Source: an uncultured archaeon | Lineage (GTDB): Archaea; Asgardarchaeota; Jordiarchaeia; Jordiarchaeales; Jordiarchaeaceae | NCBI GenBank assembly: GCA_964510585.1 | Contig: CAZECW010000087.1 | Location: 1-10,585, forward strand | Direction: 5' to 3' | Length of the DNA: 10,585 bases | In this document: positions 794 through 10,246 of the stretch, one piece after another | Numbering within the stretch: the first letter of the stretch is position 1 | Layout: each line of letters opens with the position of its first letter | Program-made: the position numbers and the translations under genes | The notes under the pieces: generated by a model | Told to the model about the DNA's origin: nothing | The model's database searches: none | Seen by the model: the letters and a program-made list of their open reading frames with translations, nothing else

Positions 794-1099
794 GCTGCCG
801 TGCAGTAATCTAAATATAGAGAGAGGACGGTGAGTGGTGAGGGAATCATGGTGGAGGTCAGATAAGAACAAGCAGGATAGGTGGCGGGCATAAATCTTTT
901 GCCACCAAATTGCGTGCCCACGCAGTTGAAGACCAATCACACATCCTGCGTCTTCAAGCAACAAAAGAAGATCCTAGAAGAATTATGTGACAACCTCGAA
1001 AGGATGACACAAACAAAAATGAAGGCCACCTGTTATAGTTGAGGGCAATGAAACAAGTTCAAATATTAGAAGATAACGAAAAAATAGGTTCCGCACAGT

Positions 1100-1320
1100 G
1101 AGTCTACGATTTATTACGTTTCTATTTGCATATTTTTGTTCTTAGCTTAGCTTTCACGCGGCTTTTTTGGGAAGCATCGTTTTAAACTGACTTTGAGGAT
1201 GGGAGCAACCTTTTCCTAAAGGGATCAAGGGACGTAAAAGATCCCACAAGTGGGGAGTAGGGAGGAGCAAACAATTAAAAGGAGCAATGGAAAAAGAGCT
1301 ATGTAATAAATAGTAGACTC
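1100..1320. mobile_element. Putative MITE / internally deleted IS, 221 bp
   Basis: 1100-1119 GAGTCTACGATTTATTACGT versus the reverse complement of 1301-1320 GAGTCTACTATTTATTACAT gives an 18/20 inverted repeat. The flanks are ...CACAGT and GTTGAT..., a possible 2-bp GT duplication. No intact ORF lies inside. Confidence 0.55.
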
Positions 1321-1329
1321 GTTGATTTA

Positions 1330-2376
1330 TTACTCTTTTCTTTCTATTTTTTGCCAATTAATGTTGGAGCCGATATTTGGGTTAAAGTCTGGATCGTCAG
1401 ATAGAATGTATTCTCCAAGACTGTTTGTCCATGCACTGGAGTAACCGCTTGGTAGTTCTACAGTTTTCTGTTCTATTGGATTATAATAGTTATCTACACC
1501 TCTGATGTATTGACTGAAGTTTTCAGTGATTTTATCGTTAATCGCTTGTCTTTGATAGTAGGATTGCATTATCATGTCGCTAATTTCATTGCTCGTCTGA
1601 CTTATAATTTTGCTTAATTGGCCAATGCTGTGAATTTGTTGAATTTGTCTTTGAACTAAGTATTCAACAACTTGGTTATATTTATTGAACCATTGTGGAT
1701 TTAATTTGAAGGAGTAGGCTATTGTCTGGAAAATTTTAGTCTGAGTGTCAAGTTTTCCTTTTTCCGCCTTAAATGAGAAAATATAATCCAACCACCAGTT
1801 AATGTTAGAAACTATACCATGTACAGTGGGAAATGTGAATGCGATTCCCTCCACTATCGCGTAGATTTCTTCTTCCATAGGTATTCCATTGCGCTTATAG
1901 GAAATCCGCATTTTTGCTCCATCTGCAAACTTCAATATGCCAGGCTGCTCCGAAATTCCCGTTATGATTGCTTCAACAAGTTCTTGAGGAAGAGATTGTG
2001 AATCTACAATTCGCAGGTCAAAAACATTATTTCTGAATCTTGGTATTACAATTTCCTTAAACGCCTCAATTGGTTTCGTTGGAGGGCGTACTTCACTTCC
2101 AAAATAATACGAACCGATGGGAAACACAGAAAGTAGCATTTGATTGTTAGTCCAGAAAAAGGCCTGATTTGGAAGTACCTCAAATTCCTCTCTACCTTCT
2201 GGACTATAAACTCGAAAACTTGCTACCGCAGGCATGCCGGGATTGTTTAATATCCATTTGATACCCCCCTCAAATTGCCAATCTGAAGGAATAAGTATTT
2301 TAAAAGCCTCAATCCCAATACCTTCCCTATCAATATATGAAAGAGTTTTAAACCGAATCGAGGTTATATCTTGCAT
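1330..2376 (-). CDS. Uncharacterised 348-aa protein (alpha/beta N-terminal domain, Q/S-rich helical segment, conserved-looking C-terminal domain)
   Basis: Long intact ORF with an ATG preceded by GAAGGAAT on the minus strand and a double TAA stop. No signal peptide or TM helix is evident, and I recognised no catalytic motif. Confidence 0.88.
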   Translation of the reverse strand: MQDITSIRFKTLSYIDREGIGIEAFKILIPSDWQFEGGIKWILNNPGMPAVASFRVYSPEGREEFEVLPNQAFFWTNNQMLLSVFPIGSYYFGSEVRPPTKPIEAFKEIVIPRFRNNVFDLRIVDSQSLPQELVEAIITGISEQPGILKFADGAKMRISYKRNGIPMEEEIYAIVEGIAFTFPTVHGIVSNINWWLDYIFSFKAEKGKLDTQTKIFQTIAYSFKLNPQWFNKYNQVVEYLVQRQIQQIHSIGQLSKIISQTSNEISDMIMQSYYQRQAINDKITENFSQYIRGVDNYYNPIEQKTVELPSGYSSAWTNSLGEYILSDDPDFNPNIGSNINWQKIERKE

Positions 2377-2604
2377 ATTTATTCCTTCAATCCATATTAT
2401 TTTATGTAAAAATTATCGCACTACCTTTTTTGGAGCAGAAGCGAGTGCCCCTTTGTGATTTTTTGTAATTTTTGTATCCAAAAAAGGGAAAGAAAAGTGC
2501 TTTCCTACCTCTGGATATTTAATAGCTTTTTGAATTTTATAAATTTATGCCAAAAAACTTCCAAAAAATCGACAAAACGTGAAAATGAGAGAGTAACCAA
2601 CAAT

Positions 2605-3158
2605 TTTAGCTGTCTCCAGAATCAGCTTGACCCTATTTCCCGCTTCCCTTATTCCATGCAGCCTCGCTCGCACAGAAACTTCTCAAGGCATCCAACATTT
2701 CCTGAAATAGGTCATCTTTGCGTTCAATCTGATTTATAAATTGCAATATGCGGTCAGCGGCTACCAAACCGGCTCAGACAAAACTTGCTCCGAATCGGGC
2801 CCGACGATCCTTGTGTTCGACAAATATAATTAACATGAAGACAGTCGGCAATGAGTTTACAATTTTTTTCAGTACCCAGTTTAATTAAACCAGACCAAAA
2901 TTCCGACTCGGACTACCTTCAGGCCGTTGGATGACGTAAATCACGTAACGGCATATGCCACTCTAAATCAGGTTTCTGATCGGCTGACGAGACTCGTACG
3001 TAGAAGACGGCGTTGCTGTTATGGTTGGTTTTTCATGGAAGAGTATTGTTATAGTGGATAGTTGTTCTGTTAGTTTTTGGGAACCTGCTGCGACGATAGG
3101 GGCGGTAGAAGATCTTGCAGTCGACGCCCTGTTTCCTGGACCAGCCAGCTGGTTTCAT
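2605..3158 (-). pseudogene. tnpA: IS607-family serine recombinase (TnpA) remnant
   Basis: The minus strand gives, in IS607 TnpA order: ATG 3158 MKPAGWSRKQGVDCKIFYRPYRRSRFPK (HTH); EQLSTITILFHEKP; NAVFYVRVSSADQKPDLEW (3014-2958, catalytic RVSS); NGLKVVRV; SEFWSGL; VEHKDRRARFG (2821-2789); INQIERKDDLFQEMLDALRSFCA; NRVKLILETAK. Frameshifts and stops break it up. No tnpB follows. Confidence 0.87.
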
Positions 3159-3408: not shown

Positions 3409-5250
3409 ATGTCTATGAGGAATGGCAAAATTCTTCGGATAAATCTCACTATGGGAGATGTAGCTACAGAGAATATTGATTCAAGTGTGGCTAGGAGTTT
3501 TTTGGGTTCCAAGGGTTTAGCAGCCTACTATTTGTTTAAGGAATTGAGGAGGGGAGTTGACCCGTTAAGCCCTGAAAATAAGCTTGTCTTTATGACTGGA
3601 CCCTTAACGGGTACTAAGGCTCCCTCGTCCTGCCGATTTGTGGTTTGCACAAAATCGCCACTGACTGGTGCTTGGGTGGATAGTAGTTGCGGTGGATTCT
3701 GGGGGCCGGAGCTCAGATTTGCGGGCTTTGATGGTGTCATAGTTGAGGGAAGAGCGGAGAAACCAGTCTATATTCATATAAGTGATGGTGAGGCTTCCAT
3801 AAGGGATGCGGGGTTCCTGTGGGGTATGGGCACGGTAGACACCATAGGGTATCTTAGGGAGAGACATAAGTCTGATAGAACTGTTAGGGTTGCTACCATT
3901 GGGCCCGCTGGTGAGAAGCAAGCCAGACTGGCAGCAGTTATTGCGGACATGAGGGCGGCTGGCAGAGGGGGAACCGGTGCAGTTATGGGTTCCAAGAATC
4001 TTAAGGCTATCTCAGTTGTGGGTCATGGAAAGGTTCCTATTGCCGATCCCCAGAAATTTAATAGATTAGCAAAAGAGGCCCATAAGGAAAATAAGGAGGC
4101 CAGTGCAAGAATGGCCGCCATGGGAACAGCTTCAATTGTGAGATTGGTGAACTCCACTGGAGGCTGGCCCACAAGAAACTTTAGTGAAAGCCAGTGGGAC
4201 GAGGCGGCTGAGGAACTAGCTGGAGAAACTTTTCAGAAAACGCTTTGGGGCGGAGGAAAGTATGTGAAGCCCTGTTACAACTGTCCCATAAGGTGCGCCC
4301 ACCTGGCAGTTATAAGAGAGGGAAAATATGCAGGCATTTGTGATGAGGGACCTGAGTATGAAACCATTTCCCTTTTTGGACCCAACTGTGGAATAAAGAG
4401 CAGGGAGGTAATCACGGTAGCGGACAGGATGTGCGATAATTACGGCATTGACACCATATCCTTGGGGAACACTATTGGTTTCGTTATGGAGTGTGTGGAG
4501 AGGAAATTGGTTAGTTTGGAGGATATTGATGGGGTAGATTTGAGGTTTGGAAACGAGGAAGCATTCCTCAAAGCGGTAAACATGGCGGGCAACGTTTACG
4601 GTAACCTTGGGCGACTTCTGGCAAATGGAGTTAAGCGGGCTGCGGAAAAAATCGGTAAGGGTTCGGAAAAATTTGCTATGCACGTTAAGGGATTGGAAAT
4701 ACCGGCTTATGTTCCAAGAGCTGGCCACGGACACGCCTTAGCCTACGCTGTTGCGGATCGTGGAGCCTGCCATCTTAGACCCTGGCTTTATGGTGCGGAG
4801 CACTTTTTCGGCAAGCTGAATCCCAGTACTACAGAGGATAAGCCGGAAGCGGTGAAGCTGGGACAGCAGAACCGAGCCCTGATCCACAGCAGCGGACTGT
4901 GCCAATTCGCGGTTAGTGAAGATATGCTTTATGACTCTCTGCTTAAGATGATAAACGCCGCTACAGGATTCAACTACACTGTGGATGAGTTTCGACTGGT
5001 GGGTGAGAGAATAAACAATCTCACAAGGAGTTTTAACTGTCGGGAAGGATTCACAAACAAGGATGACACACTTCCCTATCGCTCCACGAATGAGCCGTTA
5101 CCCTCGGGGCCTCAGAAGGGTCAAGTTATTAGACTCGGTGAGATGCTGCCAAAATATTATAGGGTCTGCGGGTGGAGTGAGAATGGTGTGCCCACCAGGG
5201 AAAAATTAGAGGAGCTGGGGTTGGATTTCGTCATCGAAGACCTATATTAA
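3409..5250 (+). CDS. aor: Tungsten-containing aldehyde:ferredoxin oxidoreductase family protein (AOR/FOR/WOR family)
   Basis: 613 aa with ELRFAGFDGVIVEG, IGPAGE, AAGRGGTGAVMGSKNLKAI, the [4Fe-4S] motif CYNCPIRC, EGPEYET, DNYGIDT, HVKGLE, RGACH and GLCQF. Substrate subclass is not determinable from the sequence. Confidence 0.95.
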   Translation: MSMRNGKILRINLTMGDVATENIDSSVARSFLGSKGLAAYYLFKELRRGVDPLSPENKLVFMTGPLTGTKAPSSCRFVVCTKSPLTGAWVDSSCGGFWGPELRFAGFDGVIVEGRAEKPVYIHISDGEASIRDAGFLWGMGTVDTIGYLRERHKSDRTVRVATIGPAGEKQARLAAVIADMRAAGRGGTGAVMGSKNLKAISVVGHGKVPIADPQKFNRLAKEAHKENKEASARMAAMGTASIVRLVNSTGGWPTRNFSESQWDEAAEELAGETFQKTLWGGGKYVKPCYNCPIRCAHLAVIREGKYAGICDEGPEYETISLFGPNCGIKSREVITVADRMCDNYGIDTISLGNTIGFVMECVERKLVSLEDIDGVDLRFGNEEAFLKAVNMAGNVYGNLGRLLANGVKRAAEKIGKGSEKFAMHVKGLEIPAYVPRAGHGHALAYAVADRGACHLRPWLYGAEHFFGKLNPSTTEDKPEAVKLGQQNRALIHSSGLCQFAVSEDMLYDSLLKMINAATGFNYTVDEFRLVGERINNLTRSFNCREGFTNKDDTLPYRSTNEPLPSGPQKGQVIRLGEMLPKYYRVCGWSENGVPTREKLEELGLDFVIEDLY

Positions 5251-5319
5251 CTCTTCAAAATTGTGACTGTCCTAATTTTTACTTATTAATTTCGTTTTTT
5301 GGAGATTCATTGCTGTTTA

Positions 5320-5340
5320 TTTCCCATTTTTTGCGGGATA
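5320..5340 (+). terminator. Putative terminator after aor (short C/G stem with oligo-T loop)
   Basis: TTTCCCATTTTTTGCGGGATA lies in a T-rich stretch after the aor stop. It is nearly identical to 8958-8980. Confidence 0.4.
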
Positions 5341-5363
5341 GATATTTATTTTATATTTTTATG

Positions 5364-5378
5364 CAAAAATTTTTATCC
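5364..5378 (+). promoter_or_regulatory. Putative BRE/TATA promoter for the thiolase/DUF35 cassette
   Basis: CAAAAATTTTTATCC sits about 45-55 nt upstream of ATG 5419, and a GAGG RBS precedes that ATG. Confidence 0.4.
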
Positions 5379-5418
5379 TTAAAGGAATAACTGATAGCTA
5401 AAAGTTTGAGGAATTGGG

Positions 5419-6567
5419 ATGACAAAAGCTGTTGCTATAGTTGGTTTAGGTCAGACTGAAAGTAGGGCTTTAACACCTACACAGGATTTTAGGGAACTCA
5501 TTTACAGTGCAGCGAAGAAGGCCTATGATGATGCAGGTCTAACTCCCAGAGATGTGGATGCACTTTTAACTAATGAGTATGACTTTTACGCGGGCATAAG
5601 CATTGCCGACGAGTACACTCCGGACCAGGTTGGTGCCAGGCTCAAATTTGACAACTTGGTTTGTAACGATGCAACAATTGCCTTCATAAATGCCTATATG
5701 CTTATTCTGAGCGGAGCCGCAGATATAGTAGCTGTTGAGTCAAACTCCAAGGTTGCAACCGACGTAGTTAACTACCCCGAGGTTTTACTGGCGGCCCTAG
5801 ACCCCGTTTACAACAGACCGCTGGGTGGACACCCCTACTACATTGCGGGAATGGACATGATGAGCTACCTTGAAAACAGTGACACCACCGAGGAGCAAAT
5901 TGCCAGAGTTGTGGTTAAAAACAAGGGCAACGCACTACTTAACCCGAACGCAGGCTTTGGCGCTAAACTCACAGTTGAGGATGTGTTAAGGTCTGAAGAC
6001 GCGTTCTGGCCTATTAAACTCTTGGAAATCGCTCCCTTAGCTGACTATGCTGCCGTAGTTCTTCTGGCAGCCGAGGAAAAGGCGAAATCCATTACGGATA
6101 ATCCAGTTTGGATCACTGGTGTGGGGCATGCCACAGACTCAAGCTACATTGAGTGTTGGCCTTGGGGAGAAGCTCAATGGATTAGAAACGCTTCACAGGA
6201 AGCTTACAAAATGGCGGGAATAAGTGAACCCTGGAAGGAAATTAACGTGGTGGAAATATCAGAAGCCTTTGCATACCAGGAACTGCAGGCCCTAGAAGCC
6301 CTAAGGATTTCAAGCGGCTCACTAGGAAATTTGTTGGAAATGGGCACCTTCGATTTGGACGGCAGCCTACCAGTAAATCCTTCAGGAGGCTGTCTAGGCA
6401 TGGGCTACACTCCCCAGGCCACAGGGCTCCAGAGAATAGTGGAGATAGCCCTACAACTACGTGGAGAAGCAGGAAAGAGACAGATTCCAGAAGCTGAGGT
6501 CGGCGTTGCTGTGGGTAGTGACTCTGAGATCATAAAATGTGGAGGAGTTGTGGTACTTTCGAGGTGA
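5419..6567 (+). CDS. Thiolase-fold protein A (SCP2/SCP-x-like, non-canonical active site)
   Basis: 382 aa with VAIVGLGQT, KNKGNA, APLADYAAVVLL and NPSGG...ATGLQRIVEIALQLRGEAGKRQI. HDxF is replaced by SEAF and GHP by GYT. The nucleophile loop reads LVCNDA. Confidence 0.92.
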   Translation: MTKAVAIVGLGQTESRALTPTQDFRELIYSAAKKAYDDAGLTPRDVDALLTNEYDFYAGISIADEYTPDQVGARLKFDNLVCNDATIAFINAYMLILSGAADIVAVESNSKVATDVVNYPEVLLAALDPVYNRPLGGHPYYIAGMDMMSYLENSDTTEEQIARVVVKNKGNALLNPNAGFGAKLTVEDVLRSEDAFWPIKLLEIAPLADYAAVVLLAAEEKAKSITDNPVWITGVGHATDSSYIECWPWGEAQWIRNASQEAYKMAGISEPWKEINVVEISEAFAYQELQALEALRISSGSLGNLLEMGTFDLDGSLPVNPSGGCLGMGYTPQATGLQRIVEIALQLRGEAGKRQIPEAEVGVAVGSDSEIIKCGGVVVLSR

Positions 6568-6573
6568 TGAGGA

Positions 6574-7770
6574 ATGGCGTTTGAAAACATGGTTAGATTT
6601 CCTAAAGGATTTTCTAGGAAGAAGAGGGTAGCCATTGTTGGTGCAGGCATGACTGATTTCCGCTCAATATTGCCTCACACCACTAGGGAATTATGCTTCG
6701 AAGCCTCAAAGCGAGCCCTTGACTCCTGCGGCCTCACACCTAGGGATGTGAAAGCGGTTATTGGTGCTTCAGCTCCCGACGCTTTTGACGGCATACACAT
6801 TAAGGGTTGGAACCCAGTTGACGCCATGGGTGCTGTGGGAAAACCCTACGCTCGAGAGTTTGTGGGAGGCGGAACAGGCGTCGGCTGCATCGTAAACGGT
6901 TGGTACTATGTAGCCTCAGGCCTATATGATATTGTGCTGGTTTGCGCCTTCGAAAAAATGTCGCCTCCAGTTCCCCACGCTCAGAAACTGTTCCTGACAA
7001 TATTTGAACCCATACTGGAGTGGGCGCTGGGACCCAACCTAGTGTGGATCTTCGCTCAGGAGATGAACCGGTACATGACCACTTGGGGAGTTAAGAAGGA
7101 AACAATCGCTCTATCCGCAGTGAAAAACAAGGGCAACGCCATGGATCACCCCCATGCACAGTTACCCATGAAAATTACAGTAGAGGACGTTTTGAACTCG
7201 CCTATACTTGTTTGGCCGGTGAACAGGCTGGACATCAGCCCCTCTTCTGACGGCGCGGCGGCGGTTGTACTGGCATCTGAGGATGTTGCCAAGAGGATTA
7301 CAGATACCCCGGTTTGGATTGATGGTGTGGGAATGTGTATTGATAGTCAGTACTGGACAAATAGAGACCTCGCTTTCCCCTACTATGTGTACTATGCTTC
7401 ACAGCAGGCCTATCGGATGGCTGGGATAAGTGATCCTATGAAGGAAATTGATGTATGGGAGCCCTACGATCCATTTGACTATAAGGAATTGCACCACTTA
7501 GACGGATTGATGGGTAAGAAAGGCTATGCTCCAAAGCTTCTTGCTGAGGGACAGCTTGCAAGAGATGGTGACTATCCTTCGTGTCCTTCGGGTGGACTTC
7601 AGGGTGTGGGTAACCCCATAGCCGCTGCGGGAACCATGAAGGTCTGTGAAATATACTGGCAGCTGAGCAACCAAGCGGGGAAAAGACAGGTTGACGATGC
7701 TAAAATAGGGATAGCTCAGGCTTGGGGTGACTTGATGCAGGTGGCAACTGTTGTTGTATGTAGAACATAG
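6574..7770 (+). CDS. Thiolase-fold protein B (SCP2/SCP-x-like, catalytic Cys absent)
   Basis: 398 aa with RVAIVGAGMT, KNKGNA, SPSSDGAAAVVLASE and PSGG...QLSNQAGKRQV. The CASG loop is replaced by GGTG, HDxF by YDPF and GHP by GNP. The RBS GAGGTGAT overlaps the upstream stop. Confidence 0.93.
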   Translation: MAFENMVRFPKGFSRKKRVAIVGAGMTDFRSILPHTTRELCFEASKRALDSCGLTPRDVKAVIGASAPDAFDGIHIKGWNPVDAMGAVGKPYAREFVGGGTGVGCIVNGWYYVASGLYDIVLVCAFEKMSPPVPHAQKLFLTIFEPILEWALGPNLVWIFAQEMNRYMTTWGVKKETIALSAVKNKGNAMDHPHAQLPMKITVEDVLNSPILVWPVNRLDISPSSDGAAAVVLASEDVAKRITDTPVWIDGVGMCIDSQYWTNRDLAFPYYVYYASQQAYRMAGISDPMKEIDVWEPYDPFDYKELHHLDGLMGKKGYAPKLLAEGQLARDGDYPSCPSGGLQGVGNPIAAAGTMKVCEIYWQLSNQAGKRQVDDAKIGIAQAWGDLMQVATVVVCRT

Positions 7771-7783
7771 GAGGGTTGAAGAA

Positions 7784-8455
7784 ATGAGTAAAAAGCAGGT
7801 TAAAGTTGTGGCCATGGTTGACCAATTGGAGAAGTTTATGAAGCATCTTCCACCGGATCTTAAAAAGTTCTACCAGAAGTTGGAAATTACCCAAGCTCCG
7901 AGCAAAAAGGGGCAACTGGAGAAAGATCTAGAAGAAAAGGGGTTAATGACATACATCCCAAACTGGAAGCTTGACAATGGTATCTACCTTGGAAATTATA
8001 GGCTGCAATTCAATTATTCTAGAACCGCGGGATATGCTATTGGAACCTTCCTTAATGGTTTGAAAGAGGGGAAAATACTGGGCAGGAAGTGTCACCACTG
8101 TGGCAGGATTCTTGTTCCCCCAAGGATGTTCTGTGAATGGTGTTTCAGGGAAACTGATCAGTGGGTGGAGGTTGCAGATACGGGCATCATTGGAACATAT
8201 TCAGTTTCATATATTACGGCTGACCCCAAGGTGAGACTGGAAAAGCCAATAATAAGCGGTGTGGTGTGGTTGGATGGAACCAAGCTTGAAACACCATCAT
8301 CAAAGACTGTGAGACATTGGGGTGGCTTTATGCACTATTTCGGCGAGGTAACTCCGGAGAAAATCAAGATTGGAATGAAAGTGAAAGCAGTCTGGGAACC
8401 CCCCGATAAGAGGAGGGGTTCCATACTGGACATAAAATACTTTAAACCGGTCTGA
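7784..8455 (+). CDS. DUF35 family Zn-ribbon/OB-fold protein with N-terminal extension
   Basis: CHHC-x10-CEWC Zn ribbon, GIIGTYS OB-fold and C-terminal RRGSILDIKYFKP. I prefer start ATG 7784 over 7751 because it has a GAGG RBS and avoids overlap with thiolase B. Confidence 0.92.
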   Translation: MSKKQVKVVAMVDQLEKFMKHLPPDLKKFYQKLEITQAPSKKGQLEKDLEEKGLMTYIPNWKLDNGIYLGNYRLQFNYSRTAGYAIGTFLNGLKEGKILGRKCHHCGRILVPPRMFCEWCFRETDQWVEVADTGIIGTYSVSYITADPKVRLEKPIISGVVWLDGTKLETPSSKTVRHWGGFMHYFGEVTPEKIKIGMKVKAVWEPPDKRRGSILDIKYFKPV

Positions 8456-8465
8456 GGTGAGTATG

Positions 8466-8948
8466 ATGGCTGAACCAAACAAACCTCCTTACGCTGGAGT
8501 GAATACACTCCACTGGACGGAAAGTAATATTGACAATTACTACGAGTATCCTGCTGGGTTCGCTGGCTCCAAGTTTTTCTACGAATTAAAAGAGAATGGG
8601 AGAATAGTGGCAAGCAGGTGTAAAAAGTGTGGGAAAACAGAACTCCCTCCTAAGGCCTTCTGTGTAGACTGCTTCGATACGGACATAGAGTATGTGGAAG
8701 TGGAGCCACCGGGATTCGTCTACACTTACAGTGTTTCTTTTTACGATTTGGATGGCTCCAAGCTTGAGAAACCCATAATTTGGGCCCTCATAGCCTTTGA
8801 GGAGGCGGAAGGCGGAATCATTCATAGGTTGGGTGAAGTGGAGCCAGAAGAAGTCTACGTTGGAATGGATGTTGTACCAGAGTTTAGACCAAAGGAAGAC
8901 CGCACTGGAAGCATTCTCGATATCAAGTACTTCAAACCAGCTGCTTGA
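8466..8948 (+). CDS. DUF35 family Zn-ribbon/OB-fold protein
   Basis: CKKC-x10-CVDC, GFVYTYS and RTGSILDIKYFKP. GAGGTGA (8454-8460) favours ATG 8466; 8463 is also possible. Confidence 0.93.
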   Translation: MAEPNKPPYAGVNTLHWTESNIDNYYEYPAGFAGSKFFYELKENGRIVASRCKKCGKTELPPKAFCVDCFDTDIEYVEVEPPGFVYTYSVSFYDLDGSKLEKPIIWALIAFEEAEGGIIHRLGEVEPEEVYVGMDVVPEFRPKEDRTGSILDIKYFKPAA

Positions 8949-8957
8949 AAACTTCAT

Positions 8958-8998
8958 TTTCCCATTTTTTTCTGGGAAATCCTTTTTTACTCCTTTTA
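8958..8998 (+). terminator. Putative terminator after the cassette
   Basis: A 7-bp stem TTTCCCA/TGGGAAA with a T-rich loop, followed by T runs (CCTTTTTTACTCCTTTT). Confidence 0.55.
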
Positions 8999-9040: not shown

Positions 9041-9637
9041 TTGGCAAAATTGAAGTCGGAAGAAATTATTGTTTGCATTGAAAATTTGGAAAGTGGCTTT
9101 CGAATTTTTCCAATGGAGCGGGAGGAAGCCCACAGAAGGGGAGCAAAACATCTAGTAGTTAGAATCTTGGGATTCAACAGGGATGGAATGCTCCTAGTTC
9201 AGAAGAGAGCCCTCACCAAAAAGAGCCACCCTGGAAAGTACACTGATACTGCAAGCGGACACGTATTGTATGAGGAAGACTTTAGTTTTGAAACCATACT
9301 GAAGAGTGCGGAGAGAGAACTCTGGGAAGAAATGGGTGTAAGGGGGATACTAGAACCCTACTTGGAACAGAAATTCGACCCTGAAGACTGGGAGTTAAAC
9401 TATGTCTTTTTAGCACTCATAGAAGGGGAACCCAAATTCAATGATGAGGTGGAGGCTGAAAATAGCGGATTCAAAACCGTGGAGCAGCTCAGACACATGC
9501 TTAAAAACGAGAAATTCGTGTCTTTTGCAAAAGAGTTGTGGGAAAAATTCCTTGCCGACTACCCAACCACGGAAGCAATAAAAAAGTTGGCGGAGTCCCT
9601 AGAAAAAGCCCGCCTCAGAAAAGCCGAGAAAAATTAA
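9041..9637 (+). CDS. Nudix hydrolase, IDI type 1/YfcD-like
   Basis: TTG start with an AAGGAG RBS. Contains HRRGAKH, FNRDGMLLVQKRA-x2-KKSHPG and the Nudix box SGH...AERELWEEMGV. It lacks the IDI1 catalytic Cys (TDTASGH instead of a CCSH-type motif). Confidence 0.88.
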   Translation: MAKLKSEEIIVCIENLESGFRIFPMEREEAHRRGAKHLVVRILGFNRDGMLLVQKRALTKKSHPGKYTDTASGHVLYEEDFSFETILKSAERELWEEMGVRGILEPYLEQKFDPEDWELNYVFLALIEGEPKFNDEVEAENSGFKTVEQLRHMLKNEKFVSFAKELWEKFLADYPTTEAIKKLAESLEKARLRKAEKN

Positions 9638-9683: not shown

Positions 9684-9745
9684 CTTCCAAAACAATCAAT
9701 TAACCCAGACTAAAAACAAAAAGCAATGTAAGTGATGTGGAAAGC

Positions 9746-10246
9746 ATGTCTGAAGAATATAAAGACGTTTTCACATGCGTAAAATGTAGAAACCCCAGGG
9801 TAACAAAGTCGGCAAGAATAGTGAAGAACAACGCAGTAATCATAGGCAAATGTTTAAAAGGACACCCTTTCAACCTCAAACTACCCATAGAGCAGGAACA
9901 CAAGTGGATCGGCTACCTAAGAGACAGCGTGTACAAGTGCCGGTGCGGAATGCCCCTAGAAGAACACAAAGTGAAAGTGGGGAAAAAGAAAACTCAGCTA
10001 GTACTAAAGTGCACAAAACACAAACAGGTAACTATGATAGATACCCTACTCTGGAACACAATAGCAGCAGACAGAGAAACACAAAAAACAATGGAGCAAA
10101 AATATGAACCCCCAACATTCAAAACAGCCAAAGAACCCGAAAATACGAAAAAAACATATTCAAAATCGAAAAAAAGGAAACCCCTGGACCCCAAAAGTGG
10201 CACCCAACCTAACCCAAGCAACAAAAGCATCCTGAAAAATTTTTGA
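9746..10246 (+). CDS. Hypothetical protein with two tandem Cys3-His (putative Zn-binding) modules and a low-complexity K/P/T tail
   Basis: C-x2-C-x21-C-x3-H followed by C-x-C-x21-C-x2-H, about 54 aa apart. ATG 9746 follows GTGAT; GTG 9737 is an alternative start. Confidence 0.8.
   Translation: MSEEYKDVFTCVKCRNPRVTKSARIVKNNAVIIGKCLKGHPFNLKLPIEQEHKWIGYLRDSVYKCRCGMPLEEHKVKVGKKKTQLVLKCTKHKQVTMIDTLLWNTIAADRETQKTMEQKYEPPTFKTAKEPENTKKTYSKSKKRKPLDPKSGTQPNPSNKSILKNF

Follow-up and report, generated by a model that had tools for sequence, protein, structure and literature searches.

A four-gene cassette conserved across archaeal phyla encodes two thiolase-fold proteins without the thiolase catalytic set and two DUF35 proteins

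Among proteins of the SCP2-thiolase fold, SCP2-thiolases carry an H-D-C-F motif and TbSLP carries Y-D-C-F (PMC12329534). Two aldolases of this fold, Ltp2 and Sal, form alpha-beta-beta-alpha complexes with DUF35 domains (PMC12329534). In TcLtp2, Tyr294 of Y-D-H-F acts as the base and Tyr344 as the acid, while CtSal has a glycine where thiolases have the nucleophile, and its catalytic residues are Tyr302 and Cys304 of Y-D-C-Y; mutating the motif tyrosine abolishes activity in both (PMC12329534). Here we analyze a cassette of four genes, A to D, at positions 5419-8948 of a 10,585-base stretch of DNA (the window). The window is the whole of one contig (C87) of a 3.78-Mb, 96%-complete Jordarchaeia (Asgard) metagenome-assembled genome (MAG), and its nearest public record is a Candidatus Jordarchaeia MAG in which protein B is 99% identical. 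Genes A and B encode SCP2-type thiolase-fold proteins and genes C and D encode DUF35 proteins.

Like the steroid side-chain retro-aldolases Ltp2-ChsH2 (6OK1) and Sal-Shy (9MYR), B has the SCP2-thiolase fold, no nucleophile Cys and a Tyr in Y-D-x-F. Ltp2 and Sal have an obligatory DUF35 partner and yield a carbonyl compound plus acetyl- or propionyl-CoA. However, they are homodimers with one kind of DUF35, fused to a hydratase, whereas the cassette pairs two thiolase-fold subunits that have diverged with two DUF35 proteins that stand on their own. The cassette hosts are archaea not known to degrade steroids. The archaeal thiolases of known structure, 7yvy from P. furiosus and 6esq from M. thermolithotrophicus, are nearest to A and B by sequence and fold, and share with them the DUF35 partnership and archaeal hosts that have many such pairs. 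These enzymes are homodimeric, keep the Cys, His and His and have one DUF35 type, whereas in the cassette the residues are replaced (all of them in B, most in A) and the genes form a 2+2 unit. In work on archaeal fatty-acid synthase, a canonical ketothiolase and one DUF35 protein made an alpha2beta2 complex and multiple ketothiolase/DUF35 pairs were recorded in Asgard genomes; the 2+2 cassette type is not treated there (bioRxiv 10.1101/2024.07.05.601840).

Two further systems combine unlike thiolase-fold proteins. PhlABC and MucABC (5M3K, 9VBO) bring together in one operon a DUF35 and two different thiolase-superfamily subunits, one catalytic and one not. They differ from the cassette in that PhlA is KAS III/HMG-CoA-synthase-like and not SCP2-type, PhlC keeps the catalytic Cys, there is one DUF35 type, and the setting is bacterial secondary metabolism. 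The actinobacterial Ltp3 and Ltp4 (PRK08313 and PRK07937 types) are likewise an adjacent diverged pair and are proposed aldol-lyases. They are needed for degradation of C24-branched sterol side chains, on genetic evidence only and in the wording ‘Ltp3 and/or Ltp4 aldol lyases’ (PMC10832528). The window proteins lie far under both curated NCBIfam cut-offs, B scoring 238.1 bits against NF006180 (PRK08313; cut-off 514 bits) and A 129.1 bits against NF005924 (PRK07937; cut-off 419 bits).

The catalytic positions of A and B were mapped by phmmer and by profile alignment to 7yvy and 6esq. Gene A (5419-6567, plus strand) encodes 382 amino acids and gene B (6574-7770, plus strand) encodes 398. Both match the Pfam family Thiolase_C_1 (2.4e-27 for A, 6.2e-25 for B), and B also matches Thiolase_N. 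At the position of the nucleophile Cys, B has Gly99 and A has Cys82. The His of H-D-x-F corresponds to Tyr298 in B (Y-D-P-F) and to Ser281 in A (S-E-A-F), the acid/base Cys of H-D-C-F to Pro300 and Ala283, and the His of G-H-P to Asn347 (G-N-P) and Tyr330 (G-Y-T). Of the four catalytic residues of SCP2-thiolases, one therefore remains in A and none in B. Compared with a catalytically competent SCP2-type thiolase, B is without the Cys at N-alpha3 (the CxSG loop), H-D-C-F and G-H-P; A is without H-D-C-F and G-H-P, and the position of its aligned Cys82 varies among orthologues. A preliminary description of this DNA, made from the letters and a list of open reading frames, had reported Gly99, Y-D-P-F and G-N-P in B and S-E-A-F and G-Y-T in A. 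All five are confirmed by the alignment, and its statement that neither protein has the catalytic set holds, with three of the four residues gone from A and all four from B.

The placement of Cys82 depends on a three-residue deletion found in the family of A. Profile alignment places this deletion before the strand. The predicted secondary structure has a helix at residues 98-114 of B and at residues 85-97 of A, each then followed by SG, which sets the A index at the B index minus 17. A MAFFT alignment of the paralogues instead put the deletion after Cys82, which moved Cys82 off the nucleophile position. This placement was rejected as a gap-placement artefact because it disagrees both with the profile hidden Markov model alignment to the solved thiolases 7yvy and 6esq and with the helix register. 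The preliminary description had named Cys82 at the nucleophile position, together with ordinary thiolase activity, as the outcome that would speak against its reading. The first half is what the alignment gives, but the second is judged unlikely, since Cys82 is not conserved and both His residues and the acid/base Cys are gone. Judged by these residues, B cannot be a thiolase and A is almost certainly not one.

The curated family models agree with the family names given in the preliminary description, PRK06065 and PRK06066. B scores 572.2 bits against NF004721 (PRK06065) over profile positions 7-392 of 393, which passes the cut-off of 455 bits, and it is the only locus in the host genome to do so. 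The best family of A is NF004722 (PRK06066), although its 364.1 bits do not reach the cut-off of 516 bits; by synteny, A corresponds to the PRK06066-type gene of other phyla, at 41-43% identity. In Foldseek searches the predicted structures of B (pLDDT 81.5) and A (pLDDT 80.9) were nearest to archaeal thiolases, and the nearest solved structures to B are archaeal thiolases (7yvy, 32% identity). Sal (9myr) came 24th in the ranking for B and 17th in that for A, and Ltp2 (6ok1) came 32nd and 13th, all at 22-24% identity.

Per-position residue counts over 120 orthologues of each protein set A and B apart. Orthologues of B from Caldarchaeales, Bathyarchaeota, Thorarchaeota, Baldrarchaeia and Methanofastidiosia are 61-71% identical to it, and orthologues of A outside Asgard are about 50% identical. 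Compared over a common set of genome pairs, the B proteins share 62-68% identity, those of A 41-43%, those of C 41-49% and those of D 35-50%; B is thus the slowest-evolving of the four and A, C and D diverge faster. The replaced motifs of B are themselves fixed. In VGGGTGV, Gly98 and Gly99 are each present in 120 of 120 orthologues; in E-x-Y-D-P-F-D-Y (EPYDPFDY in the window), Tyr298 is present in 119 and Asp299, Pro300 and Phe301 in all 120; and in S-G-G-L-L-G-V-G-N-P-I-A-A-A (GVGNPIAAA in the window) Asn347 is present in all 120. Outside these three classic motifs, the polar residues H75, R94, H135, H192, H307 and H308 are also invariant.

The corresponding positions of A vary. Position 82 is Ser in 91 orthologues, Cys in 16, Thr in 8 and Ala in 5. 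Position 281 is His in 66, Asp in 28, Cys in 12, Ser in 5 and Thr in 4, and Ala and Asn also occur there. Position 330 is Tyr in 103, Asn in 9 and His in 8. The third residue of the motif is L, M, T, K or A, so the acid/base Cys is absent. Only Asp84 is nearly fixed among these positions (Asp in 115, Glu in 5). The majority type reads SGD / HD / Y, and the Asgard clade has its own combination of C-N-D, then S/A/T-E, then Y. These counts suggest that a remodelled pocket in B is under strong selection and that A is the diverged partner of B.

The same counts bear on an alternative in which A is the catalytic subunit. Cys82, a Ser or Thr in most orthologues, would take the acyl group near Asp84, and the complex would be an unusual thiolase or a CoA-dependent or -independent acyltransferase with B as its inactive partner, as in PhlABC and MucABC. 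The alignment of position 82 with the nucleophile Cys of 6esq and 7yvy, the Ser, Cys or Thr found there in all but five of the 120 orthologues, the Asp at position 84 in 115 of them, and the H-D-x-F His still present in more than half of the orthologues (66) are all consistent with this. PhlABC is also a precedent for active and inactive thiolase-fold subunits with a DUF35 protein (PMC2954200), and 5m3k and 9vbo are among the PDB matches. However, position 82 is Ala in five orthologues, position 281 takes seven different residues, the G-H-P His is mostly Tyr and no orthologue has the acid/base Cys in its motif; A of the window has lost both His residues. A also evolves much faster than B, and the invariance of the replaced motifs of B is unexpected for a purely structural subunit. 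This alternative is the chief competitor of the explanation that follows, but we consider it unlikely.

The explanation favored here, held tentatively and rated a little short of an even chance, is that A and B form a pseudo-dimer capped by C and D, with aldol-type chemistry in B. A and B would pair as an asymmetric SCP2-thiolase-fold pseudo-dimer, and each DUF35 protein would cap one subunit as in the alpha-beta-beta-alpha assemblies of Ltp2-ChsH2(DUF35), Sal-Shy(DUF35) and BbsAB. B would be the catalytic subunit. It should be unable to form an acyl-enzyme because of Gly99 in place of Cys, Tyr298 (of Y-D-P-F) in place of His and Asn347 in place of the G-H-P His. Tyr298 would most likely act as the general base on the 3-hydroxyl of a 3-hydroxyacyl-CoA, and retro-aldol cleavage (or, in reverse, aldol addition) would yield an aldehyde or ketone and a short acyl-CoA. 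A would serve mainly as a dimer interface and possibly in substrate binding, while its former catalytic positions drift. What is established is the layout of the genes, the replaced residues, the pattern of conservation, the synteny and the family to which B belongs, and with them that the cassette is conserved, uncharacterised and non-thiolase in nature; its physical assembly, the catalytic subunit, the type of chemistry and the substrate are inferred.

The interpretation in the preliminary description is reasonable and supported in part; the non-thiolytic chemistry that it suggests is consistent with the residues of B. The Ltp2/Sal-type combination of Gly and Y-D-x-F occurs in B (Gly99, Tyr298-Asp299-Pro300-Phe301) and not in A, and the invariant Gly and Y-D-P-F of B match the Tyr-base motif of those enzymes, but the third residue is Pro and B lies outside both clades. 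The second catalytic group of Ltp2 and Sal (the His of Y-D-H-F plus Tyr344, or the Cys of Y-D-C-Y) is not found in B. Tyr344 of Ltp2 and Gln352 of Sal lie 50 residues after the motif Tyr, and Asn347 of B lies about 49 residues after Tyr298, so that the second Tyr of Ltp2 is absent in B. Tyr330 of A may be likened to Tyr344 of Ltp2, an equivalence by spacing only.

Several observations weigh against an aldolase reading. Pro300 stands where Ltp2 has a His that contributes to the oxyanion hole and Sal has an essential Cys that acts as acid, and no replacement general acid was identified in B. By both fold and sequence B is outside the Ltp2 and Sal clades (Foldseek ranks 32 and 24, 22-23% identity); B would at best resemble these aldolases in its way of working, and the Y-D-x-F signature would therefore be convergent, which weakens the inference from it. 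A itself may have a catalytic role, since all but five of 120 orthologues carry a Ser, Cys or Thr where the nucleophile would be, near the almost invariant Asp84. The window contains no hydratase gene to supply a 3-hydroxyacyl-CoA, and the literature searched contained no assayed member of the cassette family.

Genes C and D encode DUF35 proteins that combine a C4 zinc ribbon with an OB fold. Gene C (7784-8455, plus strand, 223 amino acids) starts at the ATG that follows GGAGGG, the mechanical open reading frame (ORF) beginning at TTG 7751. Gene D (8463-8948, plus strand, 161 amino acids) has alternative starts at GTG 8457 and ATG 8466. Both proteins match zf-ChsH2 (PF12172; 34.2 bits for C, 36.0 bits for D) and OB_ChsH2_C (PF01796; 39.6 bits for C, 34.7 bits for D) above the gathering scores, and the zinc ribbon C-x2-C-x10-C-x2-C is present in each, which places both in the DUF35 family. 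C also has an N-terminal extension of about 95 residues (7784-8068, residues 1-95) before the zinc ribbon, with no Pfam match. This extension is present in the Caldarchaeales orthologue (219 amino acids) and is much shorter in the Bathyarchaeota and Thorarchaeota orthologues (172 amino acids).

C and D end in the same 11-residue tail, GSILDIKYFKP (8417-8449 in C, 8907-8939 in D), which falls outside the Pfam OB-domain match. The identity is not the result of gene conversion, since the two copies differ at many synonymous sites. The tail follows a motif, G-[SN]-[IV]-x-D-I-x-[YF]-F-[KR]-P, that also occurs in C-type and D-type orthologues of other phyla and in the DUF35 proteins of five paralogous cassettes of the host genome. 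It is absent from the DUF35 protein beside the canonical thiolase on contig C20 of that genome.

The cassette was surveyed widely through searches for orthologue-encoding contigs and across genomes; a contig scan with a single protein gave only four loci. The order A-B-C-D recurs in Caldarchaeales (L026, L027), in a closed Bathyarchaeota genome (L028), in Thorarchaeota (L029, L030), in Baldrarchaeia (L035) and in two metagenome lineages (L036, L037), and the genes that flank it differ between these loci. At a further locus (L034) the four genes remain together although they have been rearranged and occupy both strands. The C-type and D-type DUF35 proteins are distinct orthologous groups, so that a cassette contains one protein of either group. 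The literature searched held no paper that mentions PRK06065 or PRK06066. The expectation that the cassette is conserved in other archaea and functionally uncharacterised is thus upheld, its order being kept across phyla.

Within Asgard the distribution is patchy. Of 201 genomes sampled, 45 have a B orthologue that passes the cut-off, as do two of the six genomes of the genus to which the window belongs, and a closed, 100%-complete congener is without one. In a set of 14 control genomes, one exceeded the PRK06065 cut-off, and S. acidocaldarius and H. volcanii were among the five that gave any match. A housekeeping function was rejected on these grounds, and the distribution points to an accessory one.

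Two of the sequences recovered are unusual in themselves. One of the metagenome lineages (L036; JGI 3300042910, a 1.56-Mb contig) carries a B orthologue of 63% identity and two DUF35 genes beside PlsY- and GpsA-type genes, which are usually bacterial, and its A-type gene was called as two pieces of 204 and 158 amino acids. The other is a 679-residue database sequence (P0018) whose first part (residues 25-341) corresponds to A 5-320 and whose second part (residues 340-676) corresponds to B 63-395. It was considered as a Rosetta-stone fusion of A and B and rejected as a probable assembly or recombination chimera of the two paralogous genes, because both halves are truncated at the joint and it is a lone sequence without a contig.

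The host genome provides additional evidence for pairing. Its thiolase-fold proteins of the SCP2 type number 24, and its DUF35 proteins about 19. About ten of the former are canonical thiolases (Cys, HD(C/A)F, GHP), so ordinary thiolysis is already covered in this organism. Six cassettes combine two thiolase-fold genes with two DUF35 genes. Besides that of the window, they lie at C139:19000-22288, C60:54352-57750, C28:24938-28263, C38:12428-15747 and C27:35952-39347, in the orders T-T-D-D or D-T-T-D (T, thiolase-fold; D, DUF35). Each of the six has one A-type protein, marked by the nucleophile-loop deletion, an Asp and variable motifs, and one B-type protein, marked by (G/C)-G-T-T-G, Y-x-P and N-P. 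The other five best match PRK08313, at 381-384 bits, which is below its cut-off.

A maximum-likelihood tree groups the canonical Cys/His/His thiolases in one clade (support 100/99), the A-types of the five other cassettes in another (99/99) and their B-types in a third (100/99), while A and B of the window branch separately and deep. The A-type and B-type clades have the same inner grouping, {C139, C28, C60} versus {C38, C27}. These congruent groupings indicate that whole cassettes were duplicated, and the retention of an A-type with a B-type protein in every copy is an argument for their acting together. The 2+2 heteromer put forward in the preliminary description is in keeping with this congruence, with the A-B-C-D synteny across phyla and with the separate C and D groups; these comparative-genomic features suggest a putative heteromeric A-B-C-D assembly. 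A complex model of A, B and D scored 0.72 with D as the scored partner, and a control in which B was replaced scored 0.84, a pair of values that counts neither for nor against binding.

Some B-type paralogues have a Cys one residue before the nucleophile-position Gly (C-G-T/S-T-G), namely C38:12917-14086, C12:6645-7814 and C193:23317-24510. Those on C12 and C193 are solitary, with no adjacent A-type gene or DUF35 match in the ORF scan.

A further alternative is that A and B are both pseudoenzymes and that the complex binds acyl-CoA or lipid without catalysis, or holds other enzymes together as a scaffold. The canonical catalytic set is missing from A as well as from B, and the archaeal complexes of fatty-acid synthase and of HMG-CoA synthase do use DUF35 proteins as scaffolds (bioRxiv 10.1101/2024.07.05.601840). 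However, the invariance across phyla of residues in the former active-site loops of B, together with its 61-71% identity, points to selection on a pocket. The cassette also occurs six-fold in one genome, next to varied acyl-CoA enzymes. We regard this alternative as very unlikely.

The genes near the cassette and its paralogues offer clues to the substrate. An acyl-CoA dehydrogenase directly adjoins the cassette in Caldarchaeales and Baldrarchaeia. Methylmalonyl-CoA mutase and MeaB are beside it in one metagenome lineage (L037), and the mutase is also next to the paralogue on C28. Crotonase-type hydratases lie on both sides of the C60 paralogue and beside C38; such hydratases or CoA-transferases flank C60, C38 and C139, and CoA-transferases, BKACE and an ADP-forming acyl-CoA synthetase are found near the paralogous cassettes. 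These neighbors belong to acyl-CoA metabolism and fit a step in acyl-CoA catabolism, possibly one that releases propionyl-CoA, but they do not fix the substrate.

The neighbors are also relevant to the possibility that the complex carries out another Cys-independent acyl-CoA reaction in place of aldol cleavage, such as decarboxylation of a malonyl- or 3-oxoacid-type thioester, isomerisation, or hydration/dehydration. TbSLP, with its Y-D-C-F motif, slowly decarboxylates malonyl-CoA (PMC12329534). The invariant H75, R94, H135, H192, H307 and H308 of B could build a different site, and a BKACE gene and methylmalonyl-CoA mutase occur near related cassettes. Nevertheless, no positive evidence favors any specific reaction of this kind, and the sole enzymes with Gly and YDxF that have an assigned function are aldolases. 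This possibility is not a likely one.

The aldolase reading can be taken further, to a new enzyme class spanning archaeal phyla, although we think this rather improbable. In this class two unlike thiolase-fold subunits would form an obligately asymmetric heterodimer, capped by two DUF35 proteins of its own, and B would have independently evolved a Tyr-based, Cys-free aldolase site (Gly / Y-D-P-F / N-P). The tail G-S-I-x-D-I-K-Y-F-K-P might supply the acid or shape the pocket. Natural substrates of such an enzyme would be 3-hydroxyacyl-CoAs that are beta-branched or non-oxidisable for another reason and that block ordinary beta-oxidation, for example those of isoprenoid-derived acids; their cleavage would release acetyl- or propionyl-CoA together with a ketone or aldehyde.

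The four genes are tightly coupled, as the preliminary description had it. They are on the same strand, with gaps of 6 nt between A and B, 13 nt between B and C and about 7 nt between C and D, and Shine-Dalgarno-like sites precede each start: GAGG at 5408-5411 for A, GAGGTGA at 6561-6567 for B, GGAGGG at 7770-7775 for C and GAGGTGA at 8454-8460 for D. Upstream of A is an AT-rich intergenic region (5251..5418, plus strand) with oligo-T runs past the stop codon of the preceding gene, TATA-like stretches and the GAGG of gene A. It is likely to hold the promoter and the 5’ end of the cassette’s own transcript. A hairpin followed by T-runs (8958..8989, plus strand) lies directly 3’ of the gene D stop codon and is likely the end of the four-gene transcript; the total count of hairpin/T-run sites is not above that in shuffled controls, so this one is suggestive by position only. 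With the T-run spacer upstream and the hairpin and T-runs after D, genes A to D look like their own transcription unit. The promoter scan was limited to sigma-70-type sites, which are uninformative for archaea, and an Rfam scan of the window gave no matches.

The gene upstream of the cassette (3409..5250, plus strand) encodes a tungsten-type aldehyde:ferredoxin oxidoreductase (AOR) of 613 amino acids with AFOR_N and AFOR_C domains, and ends 168 nt before A. It was considered as the oxidiser of an aldehyde product. There is a mycobacterial parallel, an aldolase gene next to an aldehyde reductase gene. The role was rejected because the adjacency is lineage-specific and the 168-nt AT-rich spacer contains T-runs, which leaves a weak local hint only. 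AOR is beside the cassette only in a near-identical Jordarchaeia MAG (L031), and is absent at an 81%-identical relative (L032) and in all other phyla. In the near-identical MAG, past the match to the window end (L031:9942-12547), lie genes for a 2-oxoacid:ferredoxin oxidoreductase with an IorA-like subunit (POR_N, TPP_enzyme_C, 4Fe-4S) and an IorB-like subunit (POR gamma). This IorAB-like enzyme is an alternative partner for AOR, and the two may constitute a module for fermentation of peptides or (aromatic) amino acids.

Downstream of the cassette is a gene for a Nudix-family hydrolase (9041..9637, plus strand), which is kept only in L031. It is followed by an ORF (9737-10246) for 169 amino acids that is rich in Cys/His motifs, has a Lys-rich tail and no family match, and is 79% identical in L031. 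At the other end of the window, positions 1000-3000 have a G+C content of 0.36-0.39, compared with 0.45-0.50 in the cassette, and this low-G+C stretch contains an ORF (1330-2376, minus strand, 348 amino acids) with no Pfam or NCBIfam match.

Database labels for the cassette genes include ‘acetyl-CoA acetyltransferase’ and ‘thiolase domain-containing protein’. Reconstructions of Asgard, Bathyarchaeia and Caldarchaeales metabolism may consequently count A and B as thiolases of beta-oxidation or fatty-acid synthesis. Pathway maps that use them in this way would be wrong, and this includes arguments about fatty acids in the archaeal relatives of eukaryotes. If the aldolase reading is true, Cys-free aldolases of the thiolase fold would reach beyond bacterial steroid catabolism into the archaea, and the cassette would be a case of convergent active-site remodelling and a thermostable scaffold for C-C bond formation. 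The 2+2 architecture offers a natural system in which to follow how a homodimeric enzyme turns into a heterodimer of catalytic and non-catalytic subunits.

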